From: a bacterium
GTDB taxonomy: Bacteria > Armatimonadota > Chthonomonadetes > Chthonomonadales > CAJBBX01
Assembly: GCA_021811565.1 (NCBI GenBank)
Contig: JAJZOL010000206.1
Span: forward strand, 9,105 to 73,104
Length of the DNA stretch: 64,000 nt
Reading direction: 5' to 3'
Shown here piece after piece: positions 20,157-50,073 of this stretch. Both the position numbers and the translations under genes were made by a program. Within the stretch, counting starts at the first letter, position 1; each line of letters begins with the position of its first letter. Under the pieces are notes generated by a model. The model was not told the origin of the DNA and did not search any database. It saw only the letters and a list, made by a program, of their open reading frames with translations.

Positions 20157-20242
20157 AGGTAATTGCAAAATTCAGAAAATGAGGCTATTATCGCTCATTT
20201 CACGCTCGGCTAAATACCTGCAAACGAATTTTGCAATTACCT
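20157..20242. repeat. Copy A of an ~85-bp intergenic element with GGTAATTGCAAAAT terminal inverted repeats
   Basis: AGGTAATTGCAAAATTC...GAATTTTGCAATTACCT, with an inner hairpin AATGAG-GCTATTATCG-CTCATT. It aligns nearly full length to the reverse complement of 44296-44382. Confidence 0.8.
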
Positions 20243-20285
20243 GCATTGACAATGATCAAGCAAGGAAAACAACACTGACCGGCTT

Positions 20286-20546
20286 TCATATATGTTTTAT
20301 CACCTCGGATCGTTTCTGACGATTCAGAAGGGGATCTTTTTCGTTCAATTTGTTAAAGAATATCCATGCAAACAGGCAAAGGAAACAAAAAACTGCCATC
20401 GCTTCGGTGAGCCCGTTCTTTTTCCAGTTGACCATGATCCAAGAGAACACTGCAAGTATCGTGAAAAACCAACCGCTTGCAGTCATTTTCTTCACAATGA
20501 TTCCCATGAAGATGAAAAAGAAAAAGATTTGAAGTTCGTATTTCAT
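20286..20546 (-). CDS. Small hypothetical membrane protein (2-3 TM)
   Basis: The 86-aa ORF is on the same strand as the operon and has clear hydrophobic segments. The overlapping plus-strand ORF looks non-protein-like. Confidence 0.35.
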   Translation of the reverse strand: MKYELQIFFFFIFMGIIVKKMTASGWFFTILAVFSWIMVNWKKNGLTEAMAVFCFLCLFAWIFFNKLNEKDPLLNRQKRSEVIKHI

Positions 20547-20687
20547 GGATATTAAACACTCCGAAGGCTTGTAACTAAAATATATGCATCGTTATAAGAC
20601 AGAAGGTCTTTTCAATTGGAAAAGAAACAGGTTATCAAATCTCATATTACACAATACCGATGCTGCATATTCATATGTCCTTAAAAA

Positions 20688-22148
20688 TTACGTCTGTTTG
20701 GAGAGAGATATCTCCTGAATGAACTTATCCGATGCGGCATCGTTTATGGTGATATTGAACAGATTCGATATATTCTCTCTCTTGAATGTTTCCCTTACAG
20801 TTCTGCCGTACGCAAGCGAAACCCGTATTCCTTCGGTACTAAGCCGACGAACGAGATCGTTAAGCGCCTTGATCGCTGCGCAATCTAAATAGGTGACAGG
20901 CGTTAGGTCGATTTGCACCGACTCCATGCCATATTTCACGTTGTTGTAAACATCCTCGATTTGTGTGAGATGACTTCCGTCCATGCTTCCCATCATTCTT
21001 ACGTTTAATGAATTATCGGTTTTTTGAAGAAGAATTTCAAAGGATTCTGACAAATGACCATTGAAGGCATCGGTAAACGTGTTGTATTCCGGAAGAATAT
21101 CGAGTACACCGGATATTTGCAATGCATGTCTGACTCTGTCCGAGATGCCAATCAACCGGATATCCCTTGAGACATATCTCGCTCGTTTCGCCAAATTAAT
21201 CAACGTCCCAAGAAAAGCGCTGTCGATATCCGTTGTTGAAAGAAAATCCATGACCAGATGCTGATTGGATTTCAACGCCGCTTCAGCAAGGGTTTGAAAC
21301 TGCAAAAGAATGGATTCATTCATCGAACCCACAAGGGATAGGACTGTAATCGAGCCCATTTGGGATACGGCGATTCGAGACTCGATACTATTAGCCGAGC
21401 GTCTCATCACCCAGAGATGCAGCGTCATGAAATGTGTGAAGCTAAACAAATCATGCGCGTAGCGTTTCCAGAGCCTTCTTGGATCTGAGATCAGCCGATG
21501 CAACCATTCCAATCCGGAATTTCGCATCCATACAGGGGCGCGTGGCGTCGAACCAGCAATAAAATCAAATGTTCCGCCAACTCCTATGCATGCTGGCACC
21601 TTAAGACGGTGTCGATGCATATGAATCCATTTCTCCTGCTTGGGACAACCGAAAGCAACCAACAGGATATCCGGCGCAGCCGCTTCCAATCGTTCAAGAA
21701 TTGTTTGGCTGTCCATATCGATGATATGTGTGTTTGGAGGAGAGATGCATCCCACTATCTGCAAATGCGGATGTCGTTTTTCCAAAGCCTCCTTCGCCGC
21801 CAACGCTACCTCGGGACGGGCTCCAAGCATAAAGATGCGATAGCCTTTTTTCTCAGCCAACCCAGCTAATTGAGGAACTATATCCGCACCTGTTACTCGC
21901 TCCTTCAGCGAAGCGCCTAATAGTTTTGAAGCGAGAACTACCGGCATGCCATCGGGAGCTACCAGATCCGCTTCTCGAAGTATGGCTTTTAATTCAGGAT
22001 CCGAATATGCCTTGATGAGAAAATCGGTATTTGCGGTGGCGATTTGATGGAACCGACCCGTTTGGATGAATTCCTCAATTCTTTCCAAAGTCTGTTCGGT
22101 ATTCAGGTTGTCTATGGGAATTCCAAAAATCGCAACGGTGGAACGCAT
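20688..22148 (-). CDS. WecB/TagA/CpsF-family (GT26) glycosyltransferase fused to two C-terminal STAS domains
   Basis: aa 1-~245 are GT26-like (FGIPID...PDGMPVV...GARPEV...FGCPKQEKW). aa ~262-365 and ~375-470 are STAS-like (VMDFLSTTDIDSAFLGTLINL; QIDLTPVTYLDCAAIKALNDL). The start overlaps the upstream stop by 1 nt (TAATG). Confidence 0.7.
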   Translation of the reverse strand: MRSTVAIFGIPIDNLNTEQTLERIEEFIQTGRFHQIATANTDFLIKAYSDPELKAILREADLVAPDGMPVVLASKLLGASLKERVTGADIVPQLAGLAEKKGYRIFMLGARPEVALAAKEALEKRHPHLQIVGCISPPNTHIIDMDSQTILERLEAAAPDILLVAFGCPKQEKWIHMHRHRLKVPACIGVGGTFDFIAGSTPRAPVWMRNSGLEWLHRLISDPRRLWKRYAHDLFSFTHFMTLHLWVMRRSANSIESRIAVSQMGSITVLSLVGSMNESILLQFQTLAEAALKSNQHLVMDFLSTTDIDSAFLGTLINLAKRARYVSRDIRLIGISDRVRHALQISGVLDILPEYNTFTDAFNGHLSESFEILLQKTDNSLNVRMMGSMDGSHLTQIEDVYNNVKYGMESVQIDLTPVTYLDCAAIKALNDLVRRLSTEGIRVSLAYGRTVRETFKRENISNLFNITINDAASDKFIQEISLSKQT

Positions 22149-23407
22149 TATTTTTTCGCCATCGATCCAAAATCTTGCCTCTCGGTGCGGTTCCAGTTAC
22201 GAACACCGCCGGAAGCGATCATTCGCGCATATAGTCCGAATTTCCACAATATGTAAAAAGGCGCCTGGAAGAGCGAAAGGGCAGTGCGCAAAGGTGTTTT
22301 CGCTATGATCAAACCTGCAATGAGATAAACTATCTCAAGCAGAATTACGAATGAAATCCCAAATAATAACCAATTAATATTAGGGAGATGAAAACCAATG
22401 AGTTTTAGCCCTCCCATTATGGCCAATAAAACAATAGGAAGGGAAAAAAGCTCCGCGAAAGGGGGAATGAGGATATCCAGGGATCGATCCGCCAGAAGGA
22501 TGTTTTTAATGTAAACCGATTTAATGAATATAGGTAACGCGCGTTTCATTAAACCGTACCTGCCCCCTTCCCAACGCTCTCTTTGCGTTTCCGCCTGCTT
22601 GGAATCCACGGGCATCTGAGCCGAAACCGTGGCGGAGGGGCAATAGACAATACGAATTCTTCGCTCGTTCAGTCGTAAGGCGTAATCGATATCCTCCGTA
22701 ATGCTCTCGCCAGACCAAGGAACACTTTTCAGTATTTCACCGTGAAAGCACATCCCATTTCCCTTCAACCCATCTGAAAGTCCAATGTTGCGTCTGCCTA
22801 ATGGTTTTGCATGGTGCGCCAAGTCTAATGCGCAAGCCATAAGACGTGTGCGCCAACTGTCATTCGTGTTGAGCACAACATAACGTGCTTGGATAGCTCT
22901 TGCACCTTGATTTAGAAGACTGTTCATCTCGTTTAGGAAATTCTGCGACAAGATGGAATCCGCATCCAAAATCACATAGGCGTCAAGGGTGTCATCTCCT
23001 TCCGCTAATAGCGTATCCAACGCCCATGCCAACGCGTATCCTTTTCCTTTACGATTCTCATCAAATCTTTCCAGACAGCGGACATCGCATTGTTTGGCAA
23101 TGGATGCAGTGGCGTCAACACAATTATCGGCTATGACAACGATATCATAAAGATGATTATCATATTCCAATTCCTTCAGACGATGCAACACCTCACTCAA
23201 CAGCATCTCTTCGTTATGTGCCGGGATGATCAAATGGAAACGATGGGTGTTTGAGATATTCGCAATACTGCGTTGAGGTAGAGTTGCGCACAATACCAGA
23301 AAAAGCTGATATAAGACGAATATCAACCAAATCGCTATAATGGCTGCGAAGAGGGATGTTAAAATCGTTTTGAATACGATATTCAGGAAAAATATCGTTG
23401 CAGCCAT
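22148..23407 (-). CDS. Membrane-embedded processive GT2 synthase-type glycosyltransferase (QxxRW class)
   Basis: N-terminal TM, IIPAHNEE, IADNCVDAT, ILDADS, GNGMCF, QRERW, and C-terminal TM helices. Confidence 0.75.
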   Translation of the reverse strand: MAATIFFLNIVFKTILTSLFAAIIAIWLIFVLYQLFLVLCATLPQRSIANISNTHRFHLIIPAHNEEMLLSEVLHRLKELEYDNHLYDIVVIADNCVDATASIAKQCDVRCLERFDENRKGKGYALAWALDTLLAEGDDTLDAYVILDADSILSQNFLNEMNSLLNQGARAIQARYVVLNTNDSWRTRLMACALDLAHHAKPLGRRNIGLSDGLKGNGMCFHGEILKSVPWSGESITEDIDYALRLNERRIRIVYCPSATVSAQMPVDSKQAETQRERWEGGRYGLMKRALPIFIKSVYIKNILLADRSLDILIPPFAELFSLPIVLLAIMGGLKLIGFHLPNINWLLFGISFVILLEIVYLIAGLIIAKTPLRTALSLFQAPFYILWKFGLYARMIASGGVRNWNRTERQDFGSMAKK

Positions 23408-24108
23408 TTTGGCATCGCCGTTTCAACACCATTCAACACCACACCGAGTACCTTGTCCGAACCAATCGTTTCAATGGCACGATTGACGATTTCCCTAGGC
23501 GTCACTCCTGATCGTACCACCATGACCACCCCATCCAACAAGCGTGCCATTACTTTCGTATCTGCGACAGGAAGGACGGGAGCCATATCGACTACGATAA
23601 AGTCACTGCTCATCTTCAGCGCATCGATAACCTCCGGCAGACGAGACGATCTCATCAAGCGCGAGGGATTCGCTGCGGCTCTTCCCGCTGGAATGAAGGA
23701 AAGGTTATCCAAGTCTGTTTTGTGAAGAATGTTGGTGATGTCATCCTCGGCACCCTCCAATATGTCGACCAATCCCTTCACCGACTCAAGATTGAGACGT
23801 GTTTGCATATCCCAATTTCGCAAATTGAAGTCAATCAGGGTTACCCGAGCTTCGGAGTTTTGCGCCATGGTTCCTGCCAAGTTTAGTGCGACAGTGGTTT
23901 TACCCTCCCCGTAAACGGCGGAAGTGACGCCCACCACAAAACATCGAGACGGACTTGCAGCTCGTTCGATATCCGCATGAAGGCGGGCGTATTCCTCCGG
24001 AATGAGTGAGAGTCCGTCCGTGCCCGATAGCCCGTTATGGTTTTGGTTTGCGCCATTCGGTGCGAATTGTACCAAGTGTTCCGATTTGCTGACGTTGGAT
24101 TCATTCAT
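23383..24108 (-). CDS. BY-kinase-like P-loop ATPase (CpsD/CapB / PEP-CTERM-locus tyrosine autokinase-like)
   Basis: Walker A GVTSAVYGEGKTT, Walker A' LIDFNLRN, Walker B FIVVDMAPV. There is no C-terminal tyrosine cluster. Confidence 0.7.
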   Translation of the reverse strand: MNESNVSKSEHLVQFAPNGANQNHNGLSGTDGLSLIPEEYARLHADIERAASPSRCFVVGVTSAVYGEGKTTVALNLAGTMAQNSEARVTLIDFNLRNWDMQTRLNLESVKGLVDILEGAEDDITNILHKTDLDNLSFIPAGRAAANPSRLMRSSRLPEVIDALKMSSDFIVVDMAPVLPVADTKVMARLLDGVVMVVRSGVTPREIVNRAIETIGSDKVLGVVLNGVETAMPKWLQRYFS

Positions 24109-24175
24109 AATATGTATTATGACCCTTCTCCTAGACTTTCATCAGGATAAATCATGATGATAAGCTTCTCTTCTT

Positions 24176-25705
24176 TCAGGAGGGAAGCTGTTGATTGGAT
24201 GCACCTCCGATCCGCTTGATGGACTCTTTTGATTCCTGTATTTTCGGTATGACCGCAAGCACAGGCTTTCCGAGATAACTCTCGACTTCTACGGGTGTGC
24301 GTAAAGAATGATCCATCGCCTCCAAGGCTAGTGAGAAGCAAAAGCCCACTAGGAGTCCAATAATTGGACCCAAGATATAGAGCAATATCTTTTTGCTTTT
24401 GGAATCCACCGCCGTGGCGTCGGGTTTCACGATGAGATTAACGGATTGTGATGAAGTGATGCGGTCGCGTTCCTCGTCTATTTGGGCGGCTTTCAATTCC
24501 GCCTGGGTGTTGTTTCGGATATTGTTCGCCAGCATGTAATCACGTTCAATCTTATCATAAGCGACCTCCTCAACCGGCATCTGTTTCACTCTGTCTTCAT
24601 GTACTACGATCTGATTGTTCAAATCCGCCAATCGCTGCCGTTCAGCCATCATCTGGATATTCAACGTACTTTTTTGCTGCTGAAGATCGCTCCAGACCGG
24701 GTTGATGGTGTTTTGAGTGGTGTTGGAAACCTCCGTTGCGCGAGCGGGTTTCTGTCTCGCCTCCTTGATCTGCTGATCAATGGCGGCGATGTTCTTAAGC
24801 ATTGCTTGAACTTTGGGGTGCAACGGACTGTATATGTTTTCAAGTTGCTTTAGCTGAATTTCCAAATCCTGCTTTTGCGCCACGAGAGCCAGCGCGGGAT
24901 CCGTTTGATGCGATGTTACGGATGTGCTCTCCACGATGTTGCGAGGGGTTTGCGCCAATTGGCGATTGATATCCTGAAGCCGTACTTGGGTTTCGGATAT
25001 GTCCACGTTTAAGGATGCGATTTGGCGTTGCGTGTCATCAAGGCTGGTCATTTCGCTCGTTAGCAATGTGGGCATTTGCCAATAGTGATCGCGCAAATAT
25101 TCCATCCGCAACTCCGCTTTTTTGTTGGCGGATGCGTTAAAGCGTTTATATTCCTCCTCCAACACCTGGCGCTTATCAGTGATCGCCATTGTTTCGGTGG
25201 CCACGGTGCGGTCGGCGAAGCGGCTATACAGAGCCTGCATGATGGCGTTAGCTTCTTGTTGGTTATCCCAAATGATGGAAACCTTCATGTATTGATCATT
25301 CAGGAGGGTTGGAGGAGTGATCGCTGCCCGTACCTCTTTGACGAGTGTGTCCATAGGAACGTTGGGGTGATCGCGGTCTAAGTTGGCGTTCCGTATCACC
25401 TCTTGGAGAAAATCGGGGGTCTCCTCGACCCAGAGGGAGAGTCGATTCGCCTTGCGTTTCACGTTGTCCTGGAGTTGAACCTCCTGTTTGGGGTTAGTGA
25501 GGTCTTGACTTAATTCCGGGTTGCCTGTGAGGGCGACTATGATGGATGCCTCGTATTTATTGGCGCGCAGAGCCACGATCAAACTAGTAAGAACTGTTCC
25601 AAGAACAATGGAAACGATGAACAATCTCTTACATCGAAAGATCAGTTCGACATAATTGTGCAAGGGAGAGGAGCCATAAAGACGCATAATTGAATATACC
25701 TCCAA
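24176..25705 (-). CDS. Polysaccharide chain-length determinant (Wzz/GumC-like, long coiled-coil)
   Basis: An N-terminal TM helix, ~350 aa of coiled-coil-like sequence, and a C-terminal TM helix (ILLYILGPIIGLLVGFCFSLAL). GGAGG precedes the ATG. Confidence 0.7.
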   Translation of the reverse strand: MEVYSIMRLYGSSPLHNYVELIFRCKRLFIVSIVLGTVLTSLIVALRANKYEASIIVALTGNPELSQDLTNPKQEVQLQDNVKRKANRLSLWVEETPDFLQEVIRNANLDRDHPNVPMDTLVKEVRAAITPPTLLNDQYMKVSIIWDNQQEANAIMQALYSRFADRTVATETMAITDKRQVLEEEYKRFNASANKKAELRMEYLRDHYWQMPTLLTSEMTSLDDTQRQIASLNVDISETQVRLQDINRQLAQTPRNIVESTSVTSHQTDPALALVAQKQDLEIQLKQLENIYSPLHPKVQAMLKNIAAIDQQIKEARQKPARATEVSNTTQNTINPVWSDLQQQKSTLNIQMMAERQRLADLNNQIVVHEDRVKQMPVEEVAYDKIERDYMLANNIRNNTQAELKAAQIDEERDRITSSQSVNLIVKPDATAVDSKSKKILLYILGPIIGLLVGFCFSLALEAMDHSLRTPVEVESYLGKPVLAVIPKIQESKESIKRIGGASNQQLPS

Positions 25706-26131
25706 CGGGGCGCTGCCATGCGAAGAAAGAGTTAAGCATGCTGTGGTTCAGCAGGGCGTATCTTACATCAAGGCAGAAACCCGCTCACTTGAATGCGAAG
25801 CCACCCTAGACAATAGGATGGGTATAGTTAATTTCCTTTGCATACAGTATACCAAGTATTATCGAATAACATGCGGATTTTCAGATAACAAAAAACGGTA
25901 TGTATAAGTAAACGAATGGAAATATCCATTCATTCTTTATCTTTTTGGATTGGCGTGAAAATAAACGCATGCTTTGAGATGCAATAGCATTGATACGATC
26001 CTTCGGTGAGATGTGTTCCAGCCGGAATAAAAAACGGATGGAGGTTTGAAGCGCACATTCCTGAGATGGTATCCTTTCTATCTGTATGATGCATCCCGAT
26101 GATGTATCTTTCCATATTATGGGTGTAATTC

Positions 26132-26629
26132 ATGAAGACTGGAATCGAATCGATCAAGGACTGGGAAATATTACGTCCCTCATTTCACAAAGATATCTAT
26201 TCTGCCTCCCCCTATCAAGCATGGGCGGTAATTGTTTTCGCGAAATTGGGGAGTGAATATATACTGGCGAATATTCCCCGTAGAGGGTGGACAGTGCCAA
26301 GCGGAAGAATAGAGGCTGGCGAAACGCCTGTTGATACGGCGGTGCGCGAAACGTGGGAGGAAATTGGGGCTCGTATTCGTCCGGAGGATCTGCGTTACAT
26401 GGGGTATTACCTTGTGCGAGAGGAATCCGGAGGTTACGCGACGGTTCCAACCTATTTTGTCAAATTGACGAATTACGGGGATGTTCCAGTGGGAAGCGAA
26501 TCTTTGGGGACCATCCAGTGTCCACTCGAAAATGTTCGGATGCTCTACTGGATGTGGGACGCACTCATCGAGAGTGTATTCGCCATAGCCGAAGAGTATG
26601 CGAAAAATGTGGGTATCGTAGACTGTTAA
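26132..26629 (+). CDS. NUDIX hydrolase
   Basis: Nudix box GRIEAGETPVDTAVRETWEEIGA. Confidence 0.85.
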   Translation: MKTGIESIKDWEILRPSFHKDIYSASPYQAWAVIVFAKLGSEYILANIPRRGWTVPSGRIEAGETPVDTAVRETWEEIGARIRPEDLRYMGYYLVREESGGYATVPTYFVKLTNYGDVPVGSESLGTIQCPLENVRMLYWMWDALIESVFAIAEEYAKNVGIVDC

Positions 26630-26747
26630 TAGCCCGAGCGTGTGCGTGAATGAACCGTTTTCCGCTTTTTACTACATATCCTCCATGATTTATGGCGGTG
26701 TATCCTTCTTATTTGCTTGAGCGGATATAGGGTTAGGAAAAATCACA

Positions 26748-28916: not shown

Positions 28917-28923
28917 TCAATAT

Positions 28924-28958: not shown

Positions 28959-28996
28959 GAAATATGCATACATCATGAGGTGGTTCAAAAGAGCAT

Positions 28997-29578: not shown

Positions 29579-29609
29579 TTCATGCTCCCTTCATGACTGT
29601 TTTAGAGGA

Positions 29610-34780: not shown

Positions 34781-35040
34781 AAGGGAATGACACTTTTGAG
34801 GCTTGAACGGATTACCCTTATTTTTTTCATTAAGTGTATAATGCAAAAAGCCATGCTTGGTAGGATAACCGTGTCAATAGTGAGTCAGGACTTAGACTCC
34901 GAGCGAATCGCCCTAAATACTCCTTTTCTTGCAGGCAACCCATTCCCATACATCTTATGCGGCAAACGGGAAATGTTTTCTTTGTATTCTATCTTTGTGT
35001 TAGATACCCGACCTGGATTTCTTACAAGGGGGGCGGCGAT

Positions 35041-38000
35041 ATGTTCGCAAGAATGAAAACCGTAATTATGCTATTGGGTTTGACTCAAATATTATGGAGT
35101 GGAGTTGCCATGGCGCAAAAAGTGATACCGACGGTTGACCCCAACCAAAAGGTTGGAGTGCGCCCCTATGAGATGGTGTGGGCGAATCGCAAGGAAACGT
35201 TGCCCCCCACTGTCACATTCGATAACCTTGATGGATGGACAATGCGGGTTTCGGGAGGCGCGGTGGCAACTTTCCAACCCAGTTTGGCGCAGACCCTTTA
35301 TGGGCGTCCGGTAGGAGAGTTGCGCTATCATGGTGATGGTGAAAACGGCTCGAATGCTCAAATCCTTATCACGCCTCCAAAACCGATATCAATTCCCGAT
35401 GATGCGGATGCGGTGAATATGTGGATTTATGGAAATCGATGGACATTCGGATCTGCCTTCCCCGATTCTCCATCGATTGAATCCACTCCGCCCGTATCCG
35501 TGACTCTGCTATTACAAGATGCCAATGGCCAATCCGCATCCATTCTCATCGCTCACATAGACTGGCCGCAATGGTTTCTTCTGCACGCATTGGTGCCGAA
35601 AACGCTGAAAAGACCTCTGCAATTAACGGGGTTGGAGATCAATGGCGGATGGCAATCCGGCTGGCGGGATATCTATCTCGAATCGATCAAATTCTACCGA
35701 CAGCAATTTCCACCACTGCATTTTCCTCCATTGCCCAAACGAAATCTGGCTCTTTTCCCCGGTCAGTCCCCTGGAGCCAACACAGGGAAAGGAAAACTGC
35801 CTTTTCCTACGCGCGAACAGACAATATTGCCAGTCAATTTGACGAACATATTTCATGACGATGTAAAAAGAACCGTCGCCAATCGATACGTTTTCGATTA
35901 TAAGGGAAGGGATTGTACGGTAGCCTACGAATTTGATGCAAATAGATGTTTTTCCGGACTTGACGCCAAAGTGGATGGCAAATATCTTGGGGATTTGATG
36001 GACGGAGGCGTGGTTCGACTTCAGGGAAATAACAATCCGACCGCTCAGTTGAAATCCTCAAATCTCAAAGACGGGATTGTGACGGCGGAATATACGGACG
36101 GCACGGTCCTGACCCTTCGCATATGGCAAAAATCCCTCGTAATGGATGTGAGGAATACGACTCGACGCGCAACGGCTCTTGAATTCGGAGAGTTATCAGG
36201 CTTAACTGATCCCCGTGTATTGTATATCCCCTTTTTGACGTACGGTGGAGGCAATGATCCCGGGGTGTTGCTCAGCAAGGCCGGCGGCAAATGGGTGTAC
36301 ACCTCCATATGGCCGGATTGGTATCGTTCCAACGGCAGCCAACTTTCCGCCGCTAACTACACGAATGGTAAAATCGCGCGTATCAATGGCGCGGTGACAT
36401 ACACCCCGTTAACGAATGGCATACTGAATCCCATGTATGAGAGGTTGTTCATCACAGTCTCGCCTTCCTTGGAGGAAACTTTGCCTACAATCGCCAATCC
36501 GGTTGGTTTGCATGCGAAACTGGCGGTAAATCGCTTGTGGCAGGAATCCTGGGGCCCGGATAACTATGCCACGGAAGAGAAGCGCAGTTCAATGTTGCGC
36601 GCATATGGGATCAAACGGCTGATTCAATGCAACCATGAGATATCATGGCGAGACCATGGAGAGAGTTTCACCTTGAGAACCCACGCAGCTCCGATACGAG
36701 GAGGTGCCAAAATTGTGGACGGAGAACCGGTGGTGGGCGGAGGCGACAAGAAACTGGAAGAATATGTTGCACATCAGGAATCGCTTGGATGGCTTAGCGG
36801 TCTGTACTCCAACTATAGTGATTACGCACCTATCAATCGACACTGGACACCGGAGAAGGTGATATTAAATCCGGATGGAACATGGGGAGGGGCTTGGTAC
36901 CGATGTTGGGCGTTGAAACCGTTGGCTGCGGTTCAGTTTGATGCGGAGATCGCTCCGCAGATTGAAAAAAGATACCGATCCAACTCGGCGTATACCGATG
37001 TTATGACTGCGGTACCCCCATGGGGTCGCACCGATTACGATCCTCGCGTTCCAGGAGCTGGCACTTTCGCACAGACTTTTTACGCATACGGCCAACTCTT
37101 GCGAAACGACTCTCGGGTATATCACGGACCGATCTTTTCAGAAGGCACGTATCAGTGTTTTTACGCTGGTTTGCCGGATGGAAATTATGGTCACACATAT
37201 AATAATCGGCCGCTTGCTACGGAGCCATTATTGCCCGTCTTTGACCTTAATCAAATCCATACCAAGGAGTGCGATATCGGTGTAAGTTGGACCACATCCT
37301 ATTGCGATGCGATACCGAATTGGCAAGCGCCTCAAAATATAGACAATGCGATAGATCGCTTCATTCTGACCACCATGGCTTATGGACATATCGGATGGTT
37401 GGTGGAGGAGCAATACGGTATCGAGAGGACGTGCAGGTCTTACTATATGTTGCAACAGGTTCAGGCACGTTACGGACTGAAAAAACCGCTCCGAATTGCT
37501 TATTGGGATGGCTCAAAGTTGGTCGGGGTGTCGAAGGCGGTGGAGGAGGGATTGCCAGCAAGTAGGCGGCAACTCTATGTCGAATATCCGGGAGGGCTTC
37601 GACTCTGGCTGAACGACAGTCCCAATGATTATTGGAAAGTGCGAATCGGCAAGAATATTCACATCCTCCCACCAGCCGGATGGGCGGTGTTTCAGAAAAA
37701 GAGCCGTAGGGGCCCCCTTCTCAGCTTTTCTGAACTCCATGATGGATCCAAGGTGGACTATCTCCATTCCAATGCATACATCTACCAAGACGGAAGGGGG
37801 CGGTGGTATATGACTTCCGATGCGGGATCGAATGGAGCGTTGGCGATTGAGAACAAATCCCGAAACATACTTGGAATCACCCATATAACCGGAACCGGTG
37901 ATTTTATGATCGCACGCCCGTACGAGATGAAGGGGGTGGCGTTGGAATGCAAGACTTACGATGTGAATGGACAACGATTGGAAGACGCCAAATTCAAGGA

Positions 38001-39126
38001 TAGCGGCGATCAGACGTGGATCACGCCGGTACCGAACGCTCTGAAATACGTTCTGCGATTTTCCGGAAAGAGTGCGTGGAGTATCCATCCGGAACATGCC
38101 GAAGTCGTTCCGGGAGGCAAGGTTCGTTTATTGACGATAAACCGAAAAACGTCCCAATGGCATAGCAGCGAGGGAAGCGTTGATAAGGGAGAGCTTGTGA
38201 TTCCGTCTAACGCGAAGATCGGAGACTGGATAGATATTCAAGCTAAATCTGGCGTCGATTTGCGAACGACACGTGTGTTGATTTGTCCTCCGGTGCGATG
38301 GGAGTGGAGTTTCGAAGCCAACCCCAAGGAAACACTGCTGATGCTCACTCCGCAATGGAGACTGACAGGGTTGCACAAGATAAAGATGAGAGTGGTTGTT
38401 ACCACTTCCGAAGGTTGGAATGTATCTCCCGCATATTACTCCTTCTCATCGTTGAACCCTCCGCGCAAACTGCAATTTAGGGTCTCTTCCTCATTGGCGG
38501 CGGGAGAGATTGGACACCTTACGGTAAGCTTGGAAGGGTTGCCGCAAACAATGCAGGAGGACTTTCAACTGGTTCGGGAATATCAAAAAACGAAGATTCA
38601 AAACCTCACCAATATCTCCTACTCATGGGGAATCTGTCTCAGAGGCGGTCAGGAGGAGCCTAACGAGGGGAATACAGGGGCGATATTCGATCCCGGCGAG
38701 GATTTATCCGTTGGAGGCGTTGTCAAACGCGGTATTTTCATGCATCCGCCTTATGCGGAGGGGGTTGGTTATACATGGGCAATCTCCGATCCTATCCTTC
38801 TTCCTTCGAATCCTTGCCAGTTCCACTGTTATGCCGGAATCAGAGATGGAGGGGATCCTAGCGATGGGGTGTGGTTCACCGTATACGTGATCACCGGTAA
38901 GGATAAGAGGGTGAAAATTGGAGAGATTACCGCAGAGCAGCATGAATGGAAGGAGTTTCAAGGCGACCTAAGCCCGTTCGAGGGGAAAAAAATACGTATC
39001 ATGCTCAAAGGCGATGTGGGGCCAAATAACAACTCCACTGCAGATTGGGGGGCTTGGGGTGAGCCGGAGATTCGCTTGTCCAAACCCTCCGTGGAAACAA
39101 TCATTGCACGCTCAAATGCGGAATAA
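35041..39126 (+). CDS. Very large secreted protein of unknown function (possibly glycan-active; C-terminal NPCBM-like beta-sandwich)
   Basis: The track ORF begins at 34957, but ATG 35041 follows AAGGGGGG and yields signal peptide MFARMKTVIMLLGLTQILWSGVAMA-Q. No catalytic family recognised. The last ~190 aa (GIFMHPPYAEGVGYTW...VWFTVYV...WGAWGEPEI) resemble carbohydrate-binding sandwich modules. Confidence 0.6.
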   Translation: MFARMKTVIMLLGLTQILWSGVAMAQKVIPTVDPNQKVGVRPYEMVWANRKETLPPTVTFDNLDGWTMRVSGGAVATFQPSLAQTLYGRPVGELRYHGDGENGSNAQILITPPKPISIPDDADAVNMWIYGNRWTFGSAFPDSPSIESTPPVSVTLLLQDANGQSASILIAHIDWPQWFLLHALVPKTLKRPLQLTGLEINGGWQSGWRDIYLESIKFYRQQFPPLHFPPLPKRNLALFPGQSPGANTGKGKLPFPTREQTILPVNLTNIFHDDVKRTVANRYVFDYKGRDCTVAYEFDANRCFSGLDAKVDGKYLGDLMDGGVVRLQGNNNPTAQLKSSNLKDGIVTAEYTDGTVLTLRIWQKSLVMDVRNTTRRATALEFGELSGLTDPRVLYIPFLTYGGGNDPGVLLSKAGGKWVYTSIWPDWYRSNGSQLSAANYTNGKIARINGAVTYTPLTNGILNPMYERLFITVSPSLEETLPTIANPVGLHAKLAVNRLWQESWGPDNYATEEKRSSMLRAYGIKRLIQCNHEISWRDHGESFTLRTHAAPIRGGAKIVDGEPVVGGGDKKLEEYVAHQESLGWLSGLYSNYSDYAPINRHWTPEKVILNPDGTWGGAWYRCWALKPLAAVQFDAEIAPQIEKRYRSNSAYTDVMTAVPPWGRTDYDPRVPGAGTFAQTFYAYGQLLRNDSRVYHGPIFSEGTYQCFYAGLPDGNYGHTYNNRPLATEPLLPVFDLNQIHTKECDIGVSWTTSYCDAIPNWQAPQNIDNAIDRFILTTMAYGHIGWLVEEQYGIERTCRSYYMLQQVQARYGLKKPLRIAYWDGSKLVGVSKAVEEGLPASRRQLYVEYPGGLRLWLNDSPNDYWKVRIGKNIHILPPAGWAVFQKKSRRGPLLSFSELHDGSKVDYLHSNAYIYQDGRGRWYMTSDAGSNGALAIENKSRNILGITHITGTGDFMIARPYEMKGVALECKTYDVNGQRLEDAKFKDSGDQTWITPVPNALKYVLRFSGKSAWSIHPEHAEVVPGGKVRLLTINRKTSQWHSSEGSVDKGELVIPSNAKIGDWIDIQAKSGVDLRTTRVLICPPVRWEWSFEANPKETLLMLTPQWRLTGLHKIKMRVVVTTSEGWNVSPAYYSFSSLNPPRKLQFRVSSSLAAGEIGHLTVSLEGLPQTMQEDFQLVREYQKTKIQNLTNISYSWGICLRGGQEEPNEGNTGAIFDPGEDLSVGGVVKRGIFMHPPYAEGVGYTWAISDPILLPSNPCQFHCYAGIRDGGDPSDGVWFTVYVITGKDKRVKIGEITAEQHEWKEFQGDLSPFEGKKIRIMLKGDVGPNNNSTADWGAWGEPEIRLSKPSVETIIARSNAE

Positions 39127-43900: not shown

Positions 43901-44193
43901 TCATATACAAATTTTTGTTGGATCCGATTAGGAAAGAGGATAAAAACTCTCCGGAAATCGCGCTGCTAAGGAAAGCGTTGATGGAAACCCTGCCGGAAAC
44001 AGAATTTGAAATTGCGCTATATTCGCTATATGACAATGTAACGATGAAAGTGGACGTGGACACTCCCCGGGAACTGCGTAGAATTGAAAAATATAGGAGC
44101 GTCATAAAAAGATTGGCGGAGGGTTGCTCCTCGGCCAACCCTGGCTATGAATGTCGAATATGCTCGTTTAGATTTATTTGCTCCAAGAAATGA
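40918..44193 (+). CDS. Fusion of an ImmA/IrrE (Peptidase_M78) metallopeptidase, an SF1 UvrD-like helicase and a Cas4/AddB-type PD-(D/E)XK Fe-S nuclease
   Basis: HELAH at aa 89-93 (nt 41182-41196) plus EMEASVFAIEFLLP. Walker A AGPGTGKT (aa 219-226), TFHSF, VDEYQD, VGDNRQAIYGFRGA, NYRS, TLHKSKGLEF, VGVSRA. C872 (FEKCPRRYHY) plus C1079-x2-C1082-x5-C1088. Confidence 0.8.
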   Translation: MNRWRLIRQRAREYRETVLSSNSGLSSSSLPSSEDIISAAMELAGYSKYALPATDPLLYGAISVLDRRAQCIWYSKDVNPLMLPFYLAHELAHLHLRRHTTMCLPEYIPSLPHPKAPSTVWSERLGYSLKERREMEASVFAIEFLLPLPVVRDLFMNGMDAEGISERVRIAPELIHTQLIEASLPDIPTETPALKRKKRFDASQRRAIACEDGATLVLAGPGTGKTTSLISHAEYLMSNGVHPENILILTFSNNATEELFHRVEETYPEAAERMWIGTFHSFGLELIRRFGNLINFSQNATLIDEVDAIPLMERYLERLDLSPHFICSLKDPIRYFRNLYYTISRCKDELLYPDSLHDYPSKTEAEFNETEKIDRVLKFAQVYEEWDRILREEGRMDFGDLIAQPVKILRSFPEVLFQVRSEFPHILVDEYQDINRATTVLIELLAGDGRGLWAVGDNRQAIYGFRGAYGKNFQEFSHRYPNAKVKNLRRNYRSLAAIVELLNQIANHGNDGVKRDKWLPHRTSEQATIRNIVANEKNDQLEAMVQIINEDLNQGVSYSSHVILCRTYDQAKTVSEYMEACGVPTLFLGSITDHNSVKDMLAILSYCRNGDAVSQDRILQFAEYVGKGEQSESSKDETDTRLFESHMDALHRIDDPFKLLTHYLYTLSSYLRRLMLEDSVEALQERIALSQFLFLLHSHVNRNIYGNSTRIGDFLDWMALMENLDMGSKINATEHMDYLNAVRVMTLHKSKGLEFPSVIIPFLEEMKTRSRGTLQLLMTFDDPDSAQEEKRLYFVGVSRAMDRLTLLHTDSRQSDNEFIDLINHFITPIVYCHDANIDHRLHFDKEPLISAETLPVYKPEVTWLGLQQFEKCPRRYHYLAKFGFPTIFNRRHYGWFQHLIMSRIRDMRAKSLDGEGISLEEDILKYEEEWNAPGVPDTQYSMRLKRYGMRLLVNFRDLTLREKPIPQTNIVLSLDYGKIRIPMDYVSECEGGYWIIYKFLLDPIRKEDKNSPEIALLRKALMETLPETEFEIALYSLYDNVTMKVDVDTPRELRRIEKYRSVIKRLAEGCSSANPGYECRICSFRFICSKK

Positions 44194-44295
44194 GGCACCT
44201 ACTTCTAAACGGAGGGACGTCAACATATGTCAAACCTATTTGAAGACAATTAAAATCCGTAAAAATAGCGATAATCGCATTTTAGCTATATAGTC

Positions 44296-44382
44296 AGGTA
44301 ATTGCTAAATTCGATTTCCATATATTTCGCCGAACGTGTAATGAGCGATAATAGCCACATTTCCTGAATTTTGCAATTACCT
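44296..44382. repeat. Copy B of the ~85-bp inverted-repeat-bounded element (inverted relative to copy A)
   Basis: Its reverse complement reads AGGTAATTGCAAAATTCAGGAAATGTGGCTATTATCGCTCATT..., nearly identical to copy A. It is flanked by two partial copies (44261-44295 and 44391-44432). Confidence 0.8.
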
Positions 44383-44577
44383 CTATAAACATGAGAAATG
44401 AGCGATCATAGCGTCAGGTGTTACATTTGCATTCCCCTCCAAGGATATCCCCACATCTCTTTTGGTACATATTCCTCTTATTTTAATTTTCACCAAAAAT
44501 ATCGTCACATCAATAAAGATATTTAACATAAAAGCCGAAAATCCATTTAGAGATGGTATTGATGGGGAGGCGAAGAG

Positions 44578-45693
44578 ATGGATTGCGACACGAGAAAGTG
44601 CGTTGAATGCCCATGCTTGAATTGGAAGACGATAGATCCAAGATACAATGTGTTACTGACACCAATGGATCGAATCTCGGAATCCGAACTGAAGCGATCC
44701 CTTGCGAAATCGAAAGTCCCCTTCATATCGCTCGGTTGCTCCGTGTTGCTGGATTTTCCGCTAGAGCGAATGAGTGAATTGAAATCCGCCTTATGGACCG
44801 GCATACCTTCCTTGCTTCATTCACGAATCAAAGGGATATTTCTCAGTGATGCTAATCGGCGTCAATTCACGTTTCGTGATTTTCTTCAGGCGGAATCTCT
44901 CCCAGTCTTTTTCGAACAGGCAGAAGTTGAATGGGCTAGGCGAATACTGAGCATAGGATCTCTGTACAGCGTGTTTCATCCCATTTTGGACGCCAGAACA
45001 ATGAAGATCGTTGCATACGAGGCGTTGGTGAGGGCGCATCATCCCTACACAGGCGACGTGATATCCGCTGGCGAACTCCTGCACGCTTGTGGAAGACTGA
45101 ACCTTATGGATCAGTTGGATGGAATGGCGCGTCAGTGCGCCATTCGATCGGCAATTCAAGTGGATCAGTCCGATGCTCTGATATTCATCAACTTCCTCCC
45201 GAACGCCATTGGCGATCCTGATAGCGCTCTGAAATGCACCTTTGAGGATGCGAAGGAGATAGGATTCAAACCTGAAAGATTGGTCTTCGAGGCGGTGGAA
45301 GCGGAGAGCGCCATGAGCTTGGAGATGTTGCGTGACATTGCAAGGTACATCCATGCGATGGGGGCTAAGTTCGCCTTGGACAATCTTGGCAGAGGTCGCA
45401 TCGCTGTCCAATTGATTGAAAAATTGAACCCGGATTACGCCAAAATGGATGCAAATTTGATAGCCGTAGCGGTGACTAATGCAAATGCACGTCTGGAGAT
45501 GGATCGAATCTGCATGTCGGCGCAAGGTGTTGGAGCCACATTGATAGGGGAGGGCATCGAAACAATCGATCAGATGCGGGTCGCACTTCGCGCCGGCATC
45601 TCTCTGATGCAGGGGTTTCTCTTCTCCATTCCGTGCAATCCGGAGGATGCGGCAAAACCAATAAGGGGGTATCTTCAGCGACAGATCGCGTGA
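44578..45693 (+). CDS. EAL-domain c-di-GMP phosphodiesterase with a Cys-rich N-terminal domain of unknown function
   Basis: EAL motifs YEALVRA, INFLPN, FEAVE, ALDNLG, AKMD, GEGIE, QGFLF. The N-terminus is MDCDTRKCVECPC. GGGGAGG precedes the ATG. Confidence 0.8.
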   Translation: MDCDTRKCVECPCLNWKTIDPRYNVLLTPMDRISESELKRSLAKSKVPFISLGCSVLLDFPLERMSELKSALWTGIPSLLHSRIKGIFLSDANRRQFTFRDFLQAESLPVFFEQAEVEWARRILSIGSLYSVFHPILDARTMKIVAYEALVRAHHPYTGDVISAGELLHACGRLNLMDQLDGMARQCAIRSAIQVDQSDALIFINFLPNAIGDPDSALKCTFEDAKEIGFKPERLVFEAVEAESAMSLEMLRDIARYIHAMGAKFALDNLGRGRIAVQLIEKLNPDYAKMDANLIAVAVTNANARLEMDRICMSAQGVGATLIGEGIETIDQMRVALRAGISLMQGFLFSIPCNPEDAAKPIRGYLQRQIA

Positions 45694-45736
45694 GATACAA
45701 AAGTTAAGGATGATGCTTAAGGATCAATAGCATCAA

Positions 45737-46348
45737 CTACGGTTCGAAGTAGAATGAGGTCCTTCGCCTTAATTCCAGCCTGGCTCGGCTTAATCTGGAT
45801 TTGATGGTTCCCACAGGCACATGCAGTATCCTCGCTATCTCATCCAAAGTTTGCCCGTCAATATGATGCAAAAGAATAACCGTTCGGTATTCGTCCGGAA
45901 GGGTGTCTATGGCTTGCAGAAGCACTTGCGCACGTTCCGTAGTGTGAAGTATCTTCATGGGCTCCAAGGCGGGATCGGCTTGAAGGAATTGAATTGGGGA
46001 AGGTGATCCATCCTCGCCTTCCTTGTCAAGTTCCATGATCTCTGGAGAATTCATCCGCTTGTTAAGATGATCGAGGCATAGATTTGTGGCGATTCGACGT
46101 ATCCAGAACGGCAAGGAATCACGATTGCGCAGACGGGGAAGAGATTTGTAGATACGCACAAAGGTTTCTTGGGTTATGTCTGCGGCATCCTGTTCGTTCC
46201 GGATCATACGGTAAATATAGTTGTAGACCCTTTTATAGTGAATGTCCATCAACCATTCGAACAGCTGGTCATTGGAAAGATTCTCTCGCTGTTCGATATT
46301 TGATGGGAACGGATAGGATAACGCGCCAGGAAAAGAGCCTTTGTTCAA
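45737..46348 (-). CDS. ECF-type RNA polymerase sigma factor
   Basis: Region 2 DAADITQETFVRIY...FWIRRIATNLCLDHLNKR. Region 4 LPDEYRTVILLHHIDGQTLDEIARILHVPVGTIKSRLSRAR. Confidence 0.9.
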   Translation of the reverse strand: MNKGSFPGALSYPFPSNIEQRENLSNDQLFEWLMDIHYKRVYNYIYRMIRNEQDAADITQETFVRIYKSLPRLRNRDSLPFWIRRIATNLCLDHLNKRMNSPEIMELDKEGEDGSPSPIQFLQADPALEPMKILHTTERAQVLLQAIDTLPDEYRTVILLHHIDGQTLDEIARILHVPVGTIKSRLSRARLELRRRTSFYFEP

Positions 46349-46387
46349 GAAATTAATCCTCTGCGTGAGGCGATGATTGGTATGTCA

Positions 46388-46472
46388 AGTAATTGCAGAT
46401 CTCGTAAATAAGGTCTTTTCGTGTGCCAAAAATATGCGGTCTTAGTTTCACATTATGAATTCTGCAATTACC
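46388..46472. repeat. Copy D of the inverted-repeat-bounded element (divergent interior; arms GTAATTGCAGA / TCTGCAATTAC)
   Basis: AGTAATTGCAGATC...GAATTCTGCAATTACC, 85 bp, in the intergenic region between sdhB and the ECF sigma gene. Confidence 0.6.
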
Positions 46473-46527
46473 GCTCCTATTAAAAGTGTAGCAAGGGTTT
46501 CGGGGGTTGTCAAGGAAATATTTGTTT

Positions 46528-46569
46528 CCCGCGTCGAAAGTGTCGAAAATATGGCATTTCCGACGCGGG
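46528..46569 (-). terminator. GC-rich hairpin 13 nt downstream of the sdhB stop codon (candidate terminator)
   Basis: CCCGCGTCG (46528-46536), a 24-nt loop, CGACGCGGG (46561-46569). The sequence after it is A/T-rich but has no clean U-tract. Confidence 0.4.
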
Positions 46570-46581
46570 CATTTATGGAGA

Positions 46582-47334
46582 TTATCTCTTTTTTGGACCG
46601 ACAATCTTTCGAATCAGGATTTTCAATGGATCGTAATAATAATCCGCTACGCGTTCCTTAAGGGGGATAATACCGTTATCCGTAAGATGGATATGTTCGG
46701 GACATACCTCCTCGCAACATTTCGTGATATTACAATACCCAATGCCGCCTTCCTCCTTAAGCTGTCGCAACCGATTCTCGCTGTCCAAGGGGTGCATGTT
46801 GAGTGCGGCGATCTTAATCATGAACCGAGGTCCGAAATAGCCGTCCTTTCGGTTATGATCCCGAAGCACGTGACAAACATCCTGGCACAGGAAGCATTCA
46901 ATACACTTACGAAACTCCTGGATGCGTTCCACGTCTATCTGTTGCATTTTGAACGGGCGGGGAATATCCTCGGAGACAGTGAGGGGAGGTATCTTTTCCG
47001 CAGTCCTGTAATTGATCGATACATCCGTAACCAAGTCCTTGATGAGAGGGAAGGTCTTAAGAGGATGGACGCGAATTAATCCGTTGGAGTCGGCGAAATC
47101 CTCCACATGGCTTTTGCACATCAGTCTAGGTCTTCCGTTGATCTCCGCGCTGCAAGAACCGCATTTCGCAGCTTTGCAGTTCCAGCGACATGCGACAGTA
47201 CTATCCTGGGTTCCCTGTATTTGGTGAATGGCGTCGAGCACCACCATGCCCGGAAACGTGGTTACTTCGTAATCAGTCTCCGTACCGCCATCTGCATTTC
47301 CTCTGAAGAGGCGTATTGTCACTTTGTCACGCAT
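46582..47334 (-). CDS. sdhB: Succinate dehydrogenase/fumarate reductase iron-sulfur subunit
   Basis: Three Cys clusters: CRWNCKAAKCGSCSAEINGRPRLMC, CIECFLCQDVC, CNITKCCEEVCP. Confidence 0.9.
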   Translation of the reverse strand: MRDKVTIRLFRGNADGGTETDYEVTTFPGMVVLDAIHQIQGTQDSTVACRWNCKAAKCGSCSAEINGRPRLMCKSHVEDFADSNGLIRVHPLKTFPLIKDLVTDVSINYRTAEKIPPLTVSEDIPRPFKMQQIDVERIQEFRKCIECFLCQDVCHVLRDHNRKDGYFGPRFMIKIAALNMHPLDSENRLRQLKEEGGIGYCNITKCCEEVCPEHIHLTDNGIIPLKERVADYYYDPLKILIRKIVGPKKR

Positions 47335-49130
47335 TATTTTATCTCCTCAAACATCGCCGCCAACTCGGGAGCCATTGCCGGTACGGGTCTATGTATCAAC
47401 TTTACTGCGTCCCCATCTCTCTGTGCTATGAGATTTATCTTTCCCCACTCCTCGCTTGCATCCGTGTAATCCAACCTCCATTGCGCGCCTCTGCTCTCCT
47501 TGCGTTCCAAGGCGCATCTGCAGATAATTTCGGATGTTTTCAACATGAATCGAATATCTCTTGCGGTATGCCAGCCAGGATTGTAGACTCGATCGCCCTC
47601 CACGTGAATGGATTTTGCTCGCTCCTGCAACTCCATTACCTTATTCAGAGCTTTGGTGAGGCTCTCCTCCGTTCGGGCGATCATAGCGCCCTCCTGCATC
47701 GCTTCCTGCAGTTCCTGGGTGAGTTTGAATGGGTTCTCCTTTCCCGGATTGGTGAACGGCGCGAGGAGTGTATTGGCTTCTTCTTCAATTTGAGACGAAT
47801 CGATTTTTCCGAAATCCGCATTTTTGGCGAATTCGGCGGCATGATCGCCCGCACGTTTGCCGAATACCAGGATATCCGTCAGGGAGTTTCCCCCCAAGCG
47901 GTTCGCTCCATGCAGACCCGCAGCCGACTCCCCAGCGGCGAACAGCCCCTTGATGGATGTGGAGCAGGTTTCCGATTCAGTCCATATACCGCCCATGGTG
48001 TAGTGAATGGTGGGATAGATCTCCATCGGTTGCTTGGTGATGTCGATGCCGCCCAATGAGTAGAACTGCTCCCACATGCTGGGTAGTCGACGTTTGATGT
48101 ACTCCGCTCCCATTTGCGAAACGTCCAAGTAGATTCCGCCGTGTTCGCTTCCCCGACCCGCCAACACCTCTTTGTAAATAGCACGAGAAACCACGTCACG
48201 CGGGAGAAGTTCCGGGGGACGGCGATTGTTAACCTTATCGGTAAGCCACCTGTAGCCCTCCTCTTCCGTATCTGCGTATTGCCCCTTGTAGAGTTCAGGC
48301 ATGTATTCGGGATTGAACATGAAGCGTTCGCCCTTGTTGTTCTTCAGAATTCCACCATCTCCGCGAACCGCTTCGGTGACAAGGATTCCTCTCACTCCCG
48401 GAGGCCAAAGCATGCCGGTCGGATGAAACTGAACCATTTCCATGTCCATGAGTTCCGCTCCCGCCTCATAAGCCATGCCCGCGCCATCACCGGTTGATTC
48501 CCATGAATTGGAGGTGAACTTGTACATTCGTCCCCATCCCCCGGTCGCGAATACAATGGCTTTGGCCCTGAATGCGACGAACTCACCGGTTTGACGGTTA
48601 TATCCAAAAGCTCCGACGGCTCTATCACCATCCATGAGTAGCCTGGTAAGAGTGTGTTCCATATAGACGATGGGTTTGTAAGAAACCACCTTGTCCTGCA
48701 GCGTGCGGATAAGTTCCAGCCCGGTACGATCTCCAACGTGATTTAAACGACGATAGGTATGACCGCCGAAGGGACGCTGAGAAATGAGACCTTCAGGCGT
48801 TCTATCAAACACCGCACCGTATTCCTCCAATTCGCGCACTCGATCGGGAGCTTCTTTGGAGAATATTTCCACGATCCGCGGATTGTTGATAAATCTCCCA
48901 CCTTTCATCGTATCCTTAAAATGAACCTTCCAGTTGTCTGGTTCGCCCATGTTTCCTAGTGCCGCTGCGGCGCCTCCTTCAGCCATCACCGTGTGAGCTT
49001 TTCCCAGAAGAGATTTGGTGACGATTCCACAAGACAAACCGGCTTGGCATATGGAAATCGCCGCTCTCAAACCGGAGCCGCCCGCTCCGACCACCAGGAC
49101 ATCCTGATCATATGTAGTGTATTTTTCCAT
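47334..49130 (-). CDS. sdhA: Succinate dehydrogenase/fumarate reductase flavoprotein subunit
   Basis: VVGAGGSGLRAA, AHTVMAEGG (FAD-linking His), HPTG, HYTMGG, ESRGAQ. Confidence 0.95.
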   Translation of the reverse strand: MEKYTTYDQDVLVVGAGGSGLRAAISICQAGLSCGIVTKSLLGKAHTVMAEGGAAAALGNMGEPDNWKVHFKDTMKGGRFINNPRIVEIFSKEAPDRVRELEEYGAVFDRTPEGLISQRPFGGHTYRRLNHVGDRTGLELIRTLQDKVVSYKPIVYMEHTLTRLLMDGDRAVGAFGYNRQTGEFVAFRAKAIVFATGGWGRMYKFTSNSWESTGDGAGMAYEAGAELMDMEMVQFHPTGMLWPPGVRGILVTEAVRGDGGILKNNKGERFMFNPEYMPELYKGQYADTEEEGYRWLTDKVNNRRPPELLPRDVVSRAIYKEVLAGRGSEHGGIYLDVSQMGAEYIKRRLPSMWEQFYSLGGIDITKQPMEIYPTIHYTMGGIWTESETCSTSIKGLFAAGESAAGLHGANRLGGNSLTDILVFGKRAGDHAAEFAKNADFGKIDSSQIEEEANTLLAPFTNPGKENPFKLTQELQEAMQEGAMIARTEESLTKALNKVMELQERAKSIHVEGDRVYNPGWHTARDIRFMLKTSEIICRCALERKESRGAQWRLDYTDASEEWGKINLIAQRDGDAVKLIHRPVPAMAPELAAMFEEIK

Positions 49131-49955
49131 TTACAGTATCCTTATGTCCTTGAACATTCCGGAAGCAACCGCCATGACGTAAAAATCGGTGAACCATACG
49201 GACAGCATACTCACCCAGGCCCATAGTGCATGATTATGGTTAAGAAAACTAACCTTTTTCCATATTCCATACGAGGATCGTGTGCCGCAGGAGCAGGAAT
49301 AGCAATTGTGTTTGCCTCCAATGAAATGTCGCCATGAGTGACAAGAGAATGTATAAAGCGATAGGAGAATGATGTTAACGAGAAACACAATAGATCCCAC
49401 GCCGATGCCGAAATGGTGAGTGCCATCAGGATTGGTCCAGATGAATGCATCGACAGTATCCTTCCAGAGGATGATCACAATGACCACGGCGGCGTAAAAA
49501 GCGTAACGATGCAAATTCTGAAGTATGAACGGAAATTTTCGCTCGCCGGTGTATTTCATTCGTGCATCGGCCCTAGGTTCCGCTACGGCGCACGCCGGCG
49601 GATCCCAAAAGAAAGACCTGTAATACGCCTTTCGGTAATAATAGCAGGTGAGCCTGAACGCCAAAGGAAAGATCAAAATGTAGATCGCAGGGGATACCAT
49701 TTTCAAACCAAATAGGGGAAGGTGTAGATACCATGCGATCGGTAAAAGCGGTGAGTAGAACGGTGAAAGGTAATCCGCCCCATTGTTCGTATAGTGGTAG
49801 TAGTTGTTCTCAAATGCACGGAAAGTGGTATAGATACCGAAGAGTGTGAGCACTACGACCGTCAATAGCGGCATTAACCACCAATCTCGCTCACGATTTT
49901 CCATTGGGAGAGGTGCGCGACCCTCTTCACGGGAATTTGCTGAATAGGATGCCAT
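49131..49955 (-). CDS. sdhC: Succinate dehydrogenase cytochrome b subunit (single 5-TM, b558-type)
   Basis: 274 aa with about 5 TM helices and conserved His residues. It sits immediately upstream of sdhA. AGGAGG precedes the ATG. Confidence 0.7.
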   Translation of the reverse strand: MASYSANSREEGRAPLPMENRERDWWLMPLLTVVVLTLFGIYTTFRAFENNYYHYTNNGADYLSPFYSPLLPIAWYLHLPLFGLKMVSPAIYILIFPLAFRLTCYYYRKAYYRSFFWDPPACAVAEPRADARMKYTGERKFPFILQNLHRYAFYAAVVIVIILWKDTVDAFIWTNPDGTHHFGIGVGSIVFLVNIILLSLYTFSCHSWRHFIGGKHNCYSCSCGTRSSYGIWKKVSFLNHNHALWAWVSMLSVWFTDFYVMAVASGMFKDIRIL

Positions 49956-49990
49956 TTTTCCTCCTTCTTAACCCGTTTGTTTTTTTGTAT

Positions 49991-50073
49991 AGTAATTGCA
50001 AAACGAATCGTCTACGCGGAAATTGAGGGGGGGATAATCTCAATAGGGTAAAGATATGATTTTGCAATTTACT
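49991..50073. repeat. Copy C of the inverted-repeat-bounded element
   Basis: AGTAATTGCAAAACGAATC...GATTTTGCAATTTACT with an inner hairpin ATTGAG-GGGGGGATAAT-CTCAAT. It lies between the ywiC-like stop and the sdhC start. Confidence 0.65.

Follow-up and report, generated by a model that had tools for sequence, protein, structure and literature searches.

A family of very probable miniature inverted-repeat transposable elements, recently active in a Chthonomonadales lineage

Results

The window analysed here, a stretch of 64,000 nucleotides, belongs to a metagenome contig of 120 kb from a Chthonomonadales bacterium, and its intergenic spacers carry short palindromic repeats next to a polysaccharide locus, an EAL-domain gene and the sdhCAB operon. 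An earlier note had described four copies (A to D) and had offered three explanations for them: MITE (miniature inverted-repeat transposable element), repetitive extragenic palindromic (REP)-like sequence, or structured RNA. The repeats are very probably MITEs, that is, non-autonomous DNA transposons, which were recently active in this Chthonomonadales lineage. This assignment is made because they are short and non-coding, are bounded by terminal inverted repeats (TIRs) and by a target-site duplication (TSD) with a fixed length of 4 bp, are dispersed in many copies, occupy sites that are filled in one genome and empty at the orthologous position in another, occur nested in one another, and are decaying where they are old; the same features strongly bear out the first of the three explanations.

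When the window was read at all four sites, the copies were found as described, each with inverted GTAATTGCAAAA arms at a distance of ~70 bp. When the window was searched for GTAATTGCAAAAT with 0-1 mismatch, six matches were returned; they fall on these four sites only and form inverted pairs whose outer ends are 80-83 nt apart. This number is far above the approximately 0.08 matches expected by chance (our own calculation, 2 x 64 kb). The ends had initially been drawn 3 nt short on each side; their true form is [G/C]AG-GTAATTGCAAAA…TTTTGCAATTAC-CT[C/G]. The elements measure 87-89 bp, within the limit of ~300 bp used for MITEs, have no coding capacity and terminate on both sides in TIRs of 15-18 bp, [G/C]AGGTAATTGCAAAA(N)TC. 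According to the gene calls and the list of open reading frames (ORFs), all four copies are intergenic, as had been claimed.

Copy A (positions 20156-20243, + strand) is an intact 88-bp element of the form GAG-GTAATTGCAAAA…TTTTGCAATTAC-CTG, with an 86-aa ORF on one side and a hexapeptide acetyltransferase gene on the other; by their Pfam assignments, the co-directional genes around it belong to a polysaccharide locus. The CATTG that had been noticed on both sides of A resolves, with the correct ends, into CATT-element-CATT, with the left duplication at 20152-20155 and the right one at 20244-20247. Copy B (44295-44383, - strand, 89 bp) represents the subfamily of A in reverse, is located between a UvrD/PD-(D/E)XK helicase gene and the EAL-domain gene, and has the imperfect TSD TAGT/TATA. 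Copy D (46386-46474, - strand) is old, with tips CAA…CGC, arms GCAGA/TCTGC and flanks ATGT/TCCT, and is placed between the sdhB stop codon and an extracytoplasmic function (ECF) sigma-factor gene. Copy C (49989-50075), for which no strand is assigned, is likewise old and has an interior of its own, flanks TTGT/TTGG and a 1-nt insertion in its right arm (GCAATTTAC); 34 nt separate its near end from the sdhC start codon (49955) downstream.

Copy A had been reported to align over its full length with reverse-complemented B; the similarity was recovered at 88% identity over 72 nt. In a six-way alignment the interior was common to A and B only, and C and D shared just the arms and their spacing with A and B at the level of plain sequence. 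A family profile was built from the copies of clean347, a related Chthonomonadales metagenome-assembled genome (MAG), and searched with nhmmer. Against this profile, A and B scored E = 2.4e-25 and E = 4.7e-22, while D matched over its full length (E = 1.3e-6) and, judged by this similarity, belongs to the A/B subfamily as a diverged copy. No match to the profile was obtained for C. Two further old copies are present on the contig, 8.7-9.6 kb past the right end of the window, E1 (locus L211, 1064-1151; E = 1.8e-4) in a MarR-RND spacer and E2 (227-299 of the same locus; E = 7.9e-4) in a PQQ-MarR spacer. Both were found in all relatives, and the arms of E1 (GTAACTGC/GCAGTTAT) are matched in the window lineage only.

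The earlier count of at least four copies was raised by a fifth, B0, which is split by B. The left half of B0 (44384-44439, - strand) covers positions 1 to ~52 of the family model and gave a partial nhmmer match (E = 0.03), and its right half (~44264-44294, - strand, with an approximate outer boundary) covers positions ~53-84. Removal of B plus TATA in silico joined the two halves into model positions 1-84 with E = 8.7e-7, and in clean347 the orthologous site holds B0 without interruption (L223 14694-14776, E = 4e-9). Since excision of B restores a full-length copy that is intact in clean347, B was inserted into the older copy B0. In total, five copies are present in the window (A, B, B0, C and D) and seven in ~83 kb of the contig, of which B0 and E2 are heavily degenerate.

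Two related lineages were compared with the window. The MAG clean347 (GCA_027459625.1, contig DAIDHP010000005.1; loci L223 and L224) is syntenic at 88-91% nucleotide identity, and a second lineage, represented by ENA, JGI and Logan assemblies (loci L219-L222 and L225-L227), is ~85% identical. The check for insertion polymorphism suggested earlier gave filled sites in the window and empty sites in the relatives for both A and B. A was missing in all four relatives examined (L224-L227), leaving a gap of 92 columns that equals 88 bp plus 4 bp, and B was missing in four of four (L219, L221, L222 and L223), with a gap of 93 columns that equals 89 bp plus 4 bp; the blastn alignments of the window with clean347 break at A and B. 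C and D were present at orthologous sites in all relatives examined. The family has thus been active after the window genome and its closest sequenced relatives diverged, with A and B as new insertions. The insertions of C, D and B0 are older; they were fixed before that split and are now decaying. The Logan contig SRR13221994_20077, which comes from another sample and is 100% identical to the window, stops inside B at 44357; such a contig end is consistent with an assembly break, because B is a repeat.

The same comparison yielded observations on the surrounding genes. The glycosyltransferase/Wzy polysaccharide segment at window positions 14684-15725 does not align with its counterpart in clean347 (L224 16340-18941) and looks like a variable surface-polysaccharide cassette. 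The product of the EAL-domain gene (44578-45693) has 371 aa in both the window and clean347; in L219, L220 and L222, from the more distant lineage, the gene was called in two pieces of 307 aa and 56 aa. A 1389-aa ORF at 34957-39126, for which no Pfam family is on record, is kept by the relatives as proteins of 1338-1361 aa.

The absence of a consistent TSD had been noted earlier, and the rule was missed because the ends had been drawn too far in; with the correct ends a 4-bp TSD emerges. For this analysis, 100 elements from the window and from fetched genome loci were compared at all offsets, counted from GTAATT on the left and AATTAC on the right. An exact 4/4 repeat was obtained for 35 of the 100 elements at left -7..-4 and right +4..+7, and for 0-2 elements at other offsets. 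For the Chthonomonadales family, agreement per position was 0.81/0.67/0.71/0.81; for that of a second MAG it was 0.92/0.77/0.77/0.92. The duplicated tetramers are AT-rich without a consensus, and the inverted repeat of the scanned loci usually extends three bases further, as GAG…CTC or CAG…CTG.

The distribution of the element was assessed with the pattern GTAATTGCARA-N40-70-TYTGCAATTAC in one genome per GTDB species, which returned at least 88 loci compared with ~4 expected by chance (our own calculation). In clean347, at least 18 loci carry near-identical 89-bp copies that are 87-94% identical to A. The same termini with an exact TSD at the common offset, enclosing unrelated interiors, were found in several phyla: in Chlamydiae (L007 with TSD TGCC, L013 with TCTA), Victivallales (L069, TTCA), Fibrobacterota (L037, TTAT), Desulfobacteraceae of the Desulfobacterota (L056, AAGA) and an unclassified MAG (L033, ACTA). 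A Spirochaetales MAG harbors at least 13 loci with ~81-bp elements, and the 'uncultured bacterium' CBDVBE01 at least nine loci with 91-92-bp elements. Among 21 copies of the subfamily none lies inside an ORF of at least 120 aa; between co-directional genes, five copies have the same orientation as the genes and six the opposite one, and convergent and divergent spacers are also occupied.

Some pattern matches were set aside. Those in Nostoc and Mixta lie inside genes and are chance matches, and those in Planctomycetota (L012, L026, L028, L043, L044, L047, L054, L060, L061 and L080) belong to a different repeat, in which the heptamer AATTGCA forms inverted arrays on both sides of a GC-rich loop; its tips are TTG…CAA, a 4-bp TSD is lacking, and it met the pattern only by the motif in common. 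In L026 and L044 this hairpin is positioned just 3' of a UvrD-like helicase gene. A separate 287-nt repeat was seen in clean347 (L073 5659-5945 and L022 7542-7827, 90% identical), in L073 with a MITE 44 nt away; neither a long ORF nor an Rfam match was found for this repeat, and it is absent from the window.

This distribution also bears on the idea that a transcription factor uses the copies as paired operators, or that they are the product of a local duplication around the sdh, EAL and sigma-factor genes. In favor of such a reading, each of the four copies has a downstream gene start within 200 nt, and three of the four are found within 6 kb of each other. Near-identical copies nevertheless lie beside unrelated genes at the clean347 loci, several other phyla have elements with the same ends, close relatives lack A and B in the corresponding promoter regions, and TSDs are present. 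The genome-wide and cross-genome distribution refutes operators and local duplication alike, and we give this explanation almost no credence. The earlier note had named a failure to find further copies, with the four explained by local duplication, as evidence against a dispersed family; copies in clean347 and in other phyla were found instead. That the copies bracket the sdhCAB operon and the EAL/sigma pair, as had been remarked, looks incidental, because copies occupy all kinds of intergenic spacers.

The REP-like option, in which inverted pairs of REP sequences (REPINs) are spread by a RAYT transposase of the Y1 HUH type, draws on the fact that the elements are short, intergenic, palindromic and present in many copies, and that two inverted motifs with a spacer superficially resemble a REPIN. 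The TSD at a fixed offset is at odds with it, as REP or REPIN insertion is not known to leave one. Single arms are not themselves palindromic REPs, the termini are kept across phyla whereas REPs are lineage-specific, and no PF01797-type (Y1/RAYT) gene was called among the Pfam-annotated genes in ~83 kb of the contig. The elements share the general build of REP/REPIN repeats and are not members of that group; an origin of this kind is scarcely credible.

For the structured-RNA option, the arms had been said to co-vary and their pairing, accordingly, to be selected. An RNA gene or a cis-regulatory RNA hairpin, its outer stem kept by selection for pairing, would agree with several observations. 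All four copies fold better as single strands than shuffled controls (z = -6.0, -3.8, -2.9 and -3.3), with RNA minimum free energies of -20 to -29 kcal/mol. The arms of D and E1 are matched in the window lineage and mismatched in both relatives, and a conserved promoter-like site is located just upstream of D. Against selected pairing, the arms of orthologous D do not pair in the relatives, clean347 included (GCGAAA versus TCTGC or TTTGC), D has lost 17 nt in the L219 group, and B0 and E2 are degenerate, so that fixed copies are seen to decay. As the three lineages are unrooted, the D/E1 pattern may correspond either to pairing restored in the window lineage or to decay in the other two; the extra relatives L235 and L236 are 99.4% identical to clean347 and hence supply no outgroup. 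Matched changes in both ends are, in addition, expected for a transposon, because one transposase binds both ends, and TIR variants recur as subfamilies, with the arm variant GCAGAA/TTCTGC found again in the Chlamydiae elements L007 and L052.

Further evidence also speaks against an RNA. The interiors are unrelated between lineages, and that of C is unlike that of A and B within one genome; no orientation bias relative to the flanking genes was observed; and an RNA gene leaves the TSD and the empty sites unexplained. The Rfam check proposed earlier was run and no known model was matched, as Rfam 15 gave no matches at gathering thresholds in the window and nothing at E <= 1 in 44200-50200. Taken together, a structured RNA appears very unlikely. 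The best Rfam alignment was to mir-548 (RF01061), with 16.9 bits compared with a gathering score of 90 (E ~1). This model corresponds to Made1 of primates, likewise a palindromic MITE hairpin of ~80 bp, and both arms of Made1 as well as those of the element described here contain GTAATTGC. Made1 derives from mariner and duplicates TA. Homology to Made1/mariner was rejected and the resemblance is a coincidence, as the score is non-significant and the octamer is misplaced, lying at a different distance from the tip in the two elements.

A parent transposase was searched for in several collections. Where arms were found far apart in the fetched loci, the ORFs between them were rejected as candidates, being ordinary genes in L003 and SmpB in L067. 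An all-against-all comparison of 590 ORFs from the loci revealed no recurrent transposase-like cluster, and no credible match emerged when TIR pairs with a TSD and a distance of 250-4000 bp were sought under relaxed settings. In viral contigs, a single-arm scan returned 120 loci, all of them single matches that are seemingly due to chance (not individually inspected), and the sole distant arm pair in these contigs, L101, is located in ordinary genes. BLAST searches of a plasmid collection with TIR variants resulted in chance matches or none. For metagenomes, the subfamily end was used with not-T IUPAC codes at the position of a would-be right arm of the MITE, so as to exclude MITEs. Of the five matches, two contigs shared one degenerate MITE, a third match lay upstream of a peroxiredoxin-like gene (judged by eye), and there were two others.

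Several of these results weigh against the assignment as a MITE. None of the fetched loci was found to have a transposase gene enclosed by matching ends, the gene calls for ~83 kb of the contig include no transposase Pfam family, and none of the five matches of the metagenome scan is a parent element. Copies B, C and D have imperfect TSDs, and overall an exact one is found in only 35% of the elements; the remainder includes old copies and chance matches to the pattern. Finally, the family of the transposase and the choice between a cut-and-paste and a copy mechanism are inferred.

Promoter-like sites were detected within and beside the copies. In A, TTGCAA within the left TIR is followed after 17 nt by TATTAT (20163-20191, + strand), an inward-pointing arrangement with 9 of 12 consensus matches, and a consensus scan identified the counterpart in B (44376-44348, - strand). 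This inward site may be a relic of the promoter of the parent's transposase gene. The site upstream of D (46513-46485, - strand) consists of TTGACA-17-TACACT with an upstream TG and is kept in all relatives. Its direction is towards D and the ECF sigma-factor gene beyond, and D is therefore probably part of the 5' leader of that gene. No intrinsic terminators, which combine a GC-rich hairpin with a trailing T-run, were predicted at any of the elements.

Discussion

The elements described here are not a new kind of system; they are very likely a new family of MITE. A literature search with the terminal sequence returned unrelated primer matches only, and no matching family is contained in the MITE review PMC10969869. 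The family seems to be undescribed, and the element itself to be of an ordinary kind. With bacterial MITEs such as Correia of Neisseria and ERIC/IRU of enterobacteria (PMC10969869) it shares a length of ~80-150 bp, the absence of coding sequence, TIRs, a short TSD, an intergenic position in multiple copies that is polymorphic between strains, and the capacity to form a hairpin when transcribed. It differs from them in its ends, since the 15-18-bp terminus occurs in several phyla and ends of the Correia/ERIC type in one genus. A second difference concerns the TSD, which is AT-rich and non-specific over 4 bp here, whereas Correia, ERIC and RUP duplicate TA. Correia and ERIC are not known to have a parent transposase either.

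As for mechanism, a transposase supplied in trans would bind both identical ends, excise or copy the element and insert it via a 4-bp staggered cut. The enzyme is probably of the DDE type. The ISfinder family table reportedly gives a 4-bp duplication for the IS5 group and a 0-4-bp duplication for ISAzo13, with tips GA/GG. The tip found here, GAGG or CAGG with an A-run 12-15 nt in, may be compared with both, and a parent of the IS5-group or ISAzo13-like type is a lead that would presumably fit the 4-bp duplication and the GA/GG tips. IS5 prefers YTAR targets, and such a preference was not seen in the list of TSDs, which lacks a consensus.

A wider interpretation can be put forward for the [G/C]AGGTAATTGCAAAA terminus. 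It might define an uncatalogued, cross-phylum MITE superfamily, distributed in Armatimonadota, Chlamydiota, Victivallales, Fibrobacterota, Desulfobacterota, Spirochaetota and others, and mobilized by an unrecognised or unassigned insertion sequence (IS) group whose recognition of the ends is unusually conserved; the arms of old copies may also be kept matched by hairpin-templated gene conversion, at which D and E1 hint. We consider this combination possible but rather doubtful.

Effects on the host would be incidental. Because the ends are inverted repeats, a read-through transcript would fold into a long hairpin, and it is speculative that copies alter the expression of neighboring genes through this hairpin or through the -35-like TTGCAA. 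Candidates for such effects, by the position of copies in leader or promoter regions, are sdhCAB, the ECF sigma-factor gene, the EAL-domain gene and the acetyltransferase gene of the polysaccharide locus. For annotation, the family accounts for unannotated intergenic palindromes in Chthonomonadales genomes and for at least one assembly break, the contig end inside B. As A and B are lineage-specific, they can be used as strain-level insertion markers. The cross-phylum terminus of 15-18 bp, combined with lineage-specific interiors, offers a handle for finding the IS group responsible.

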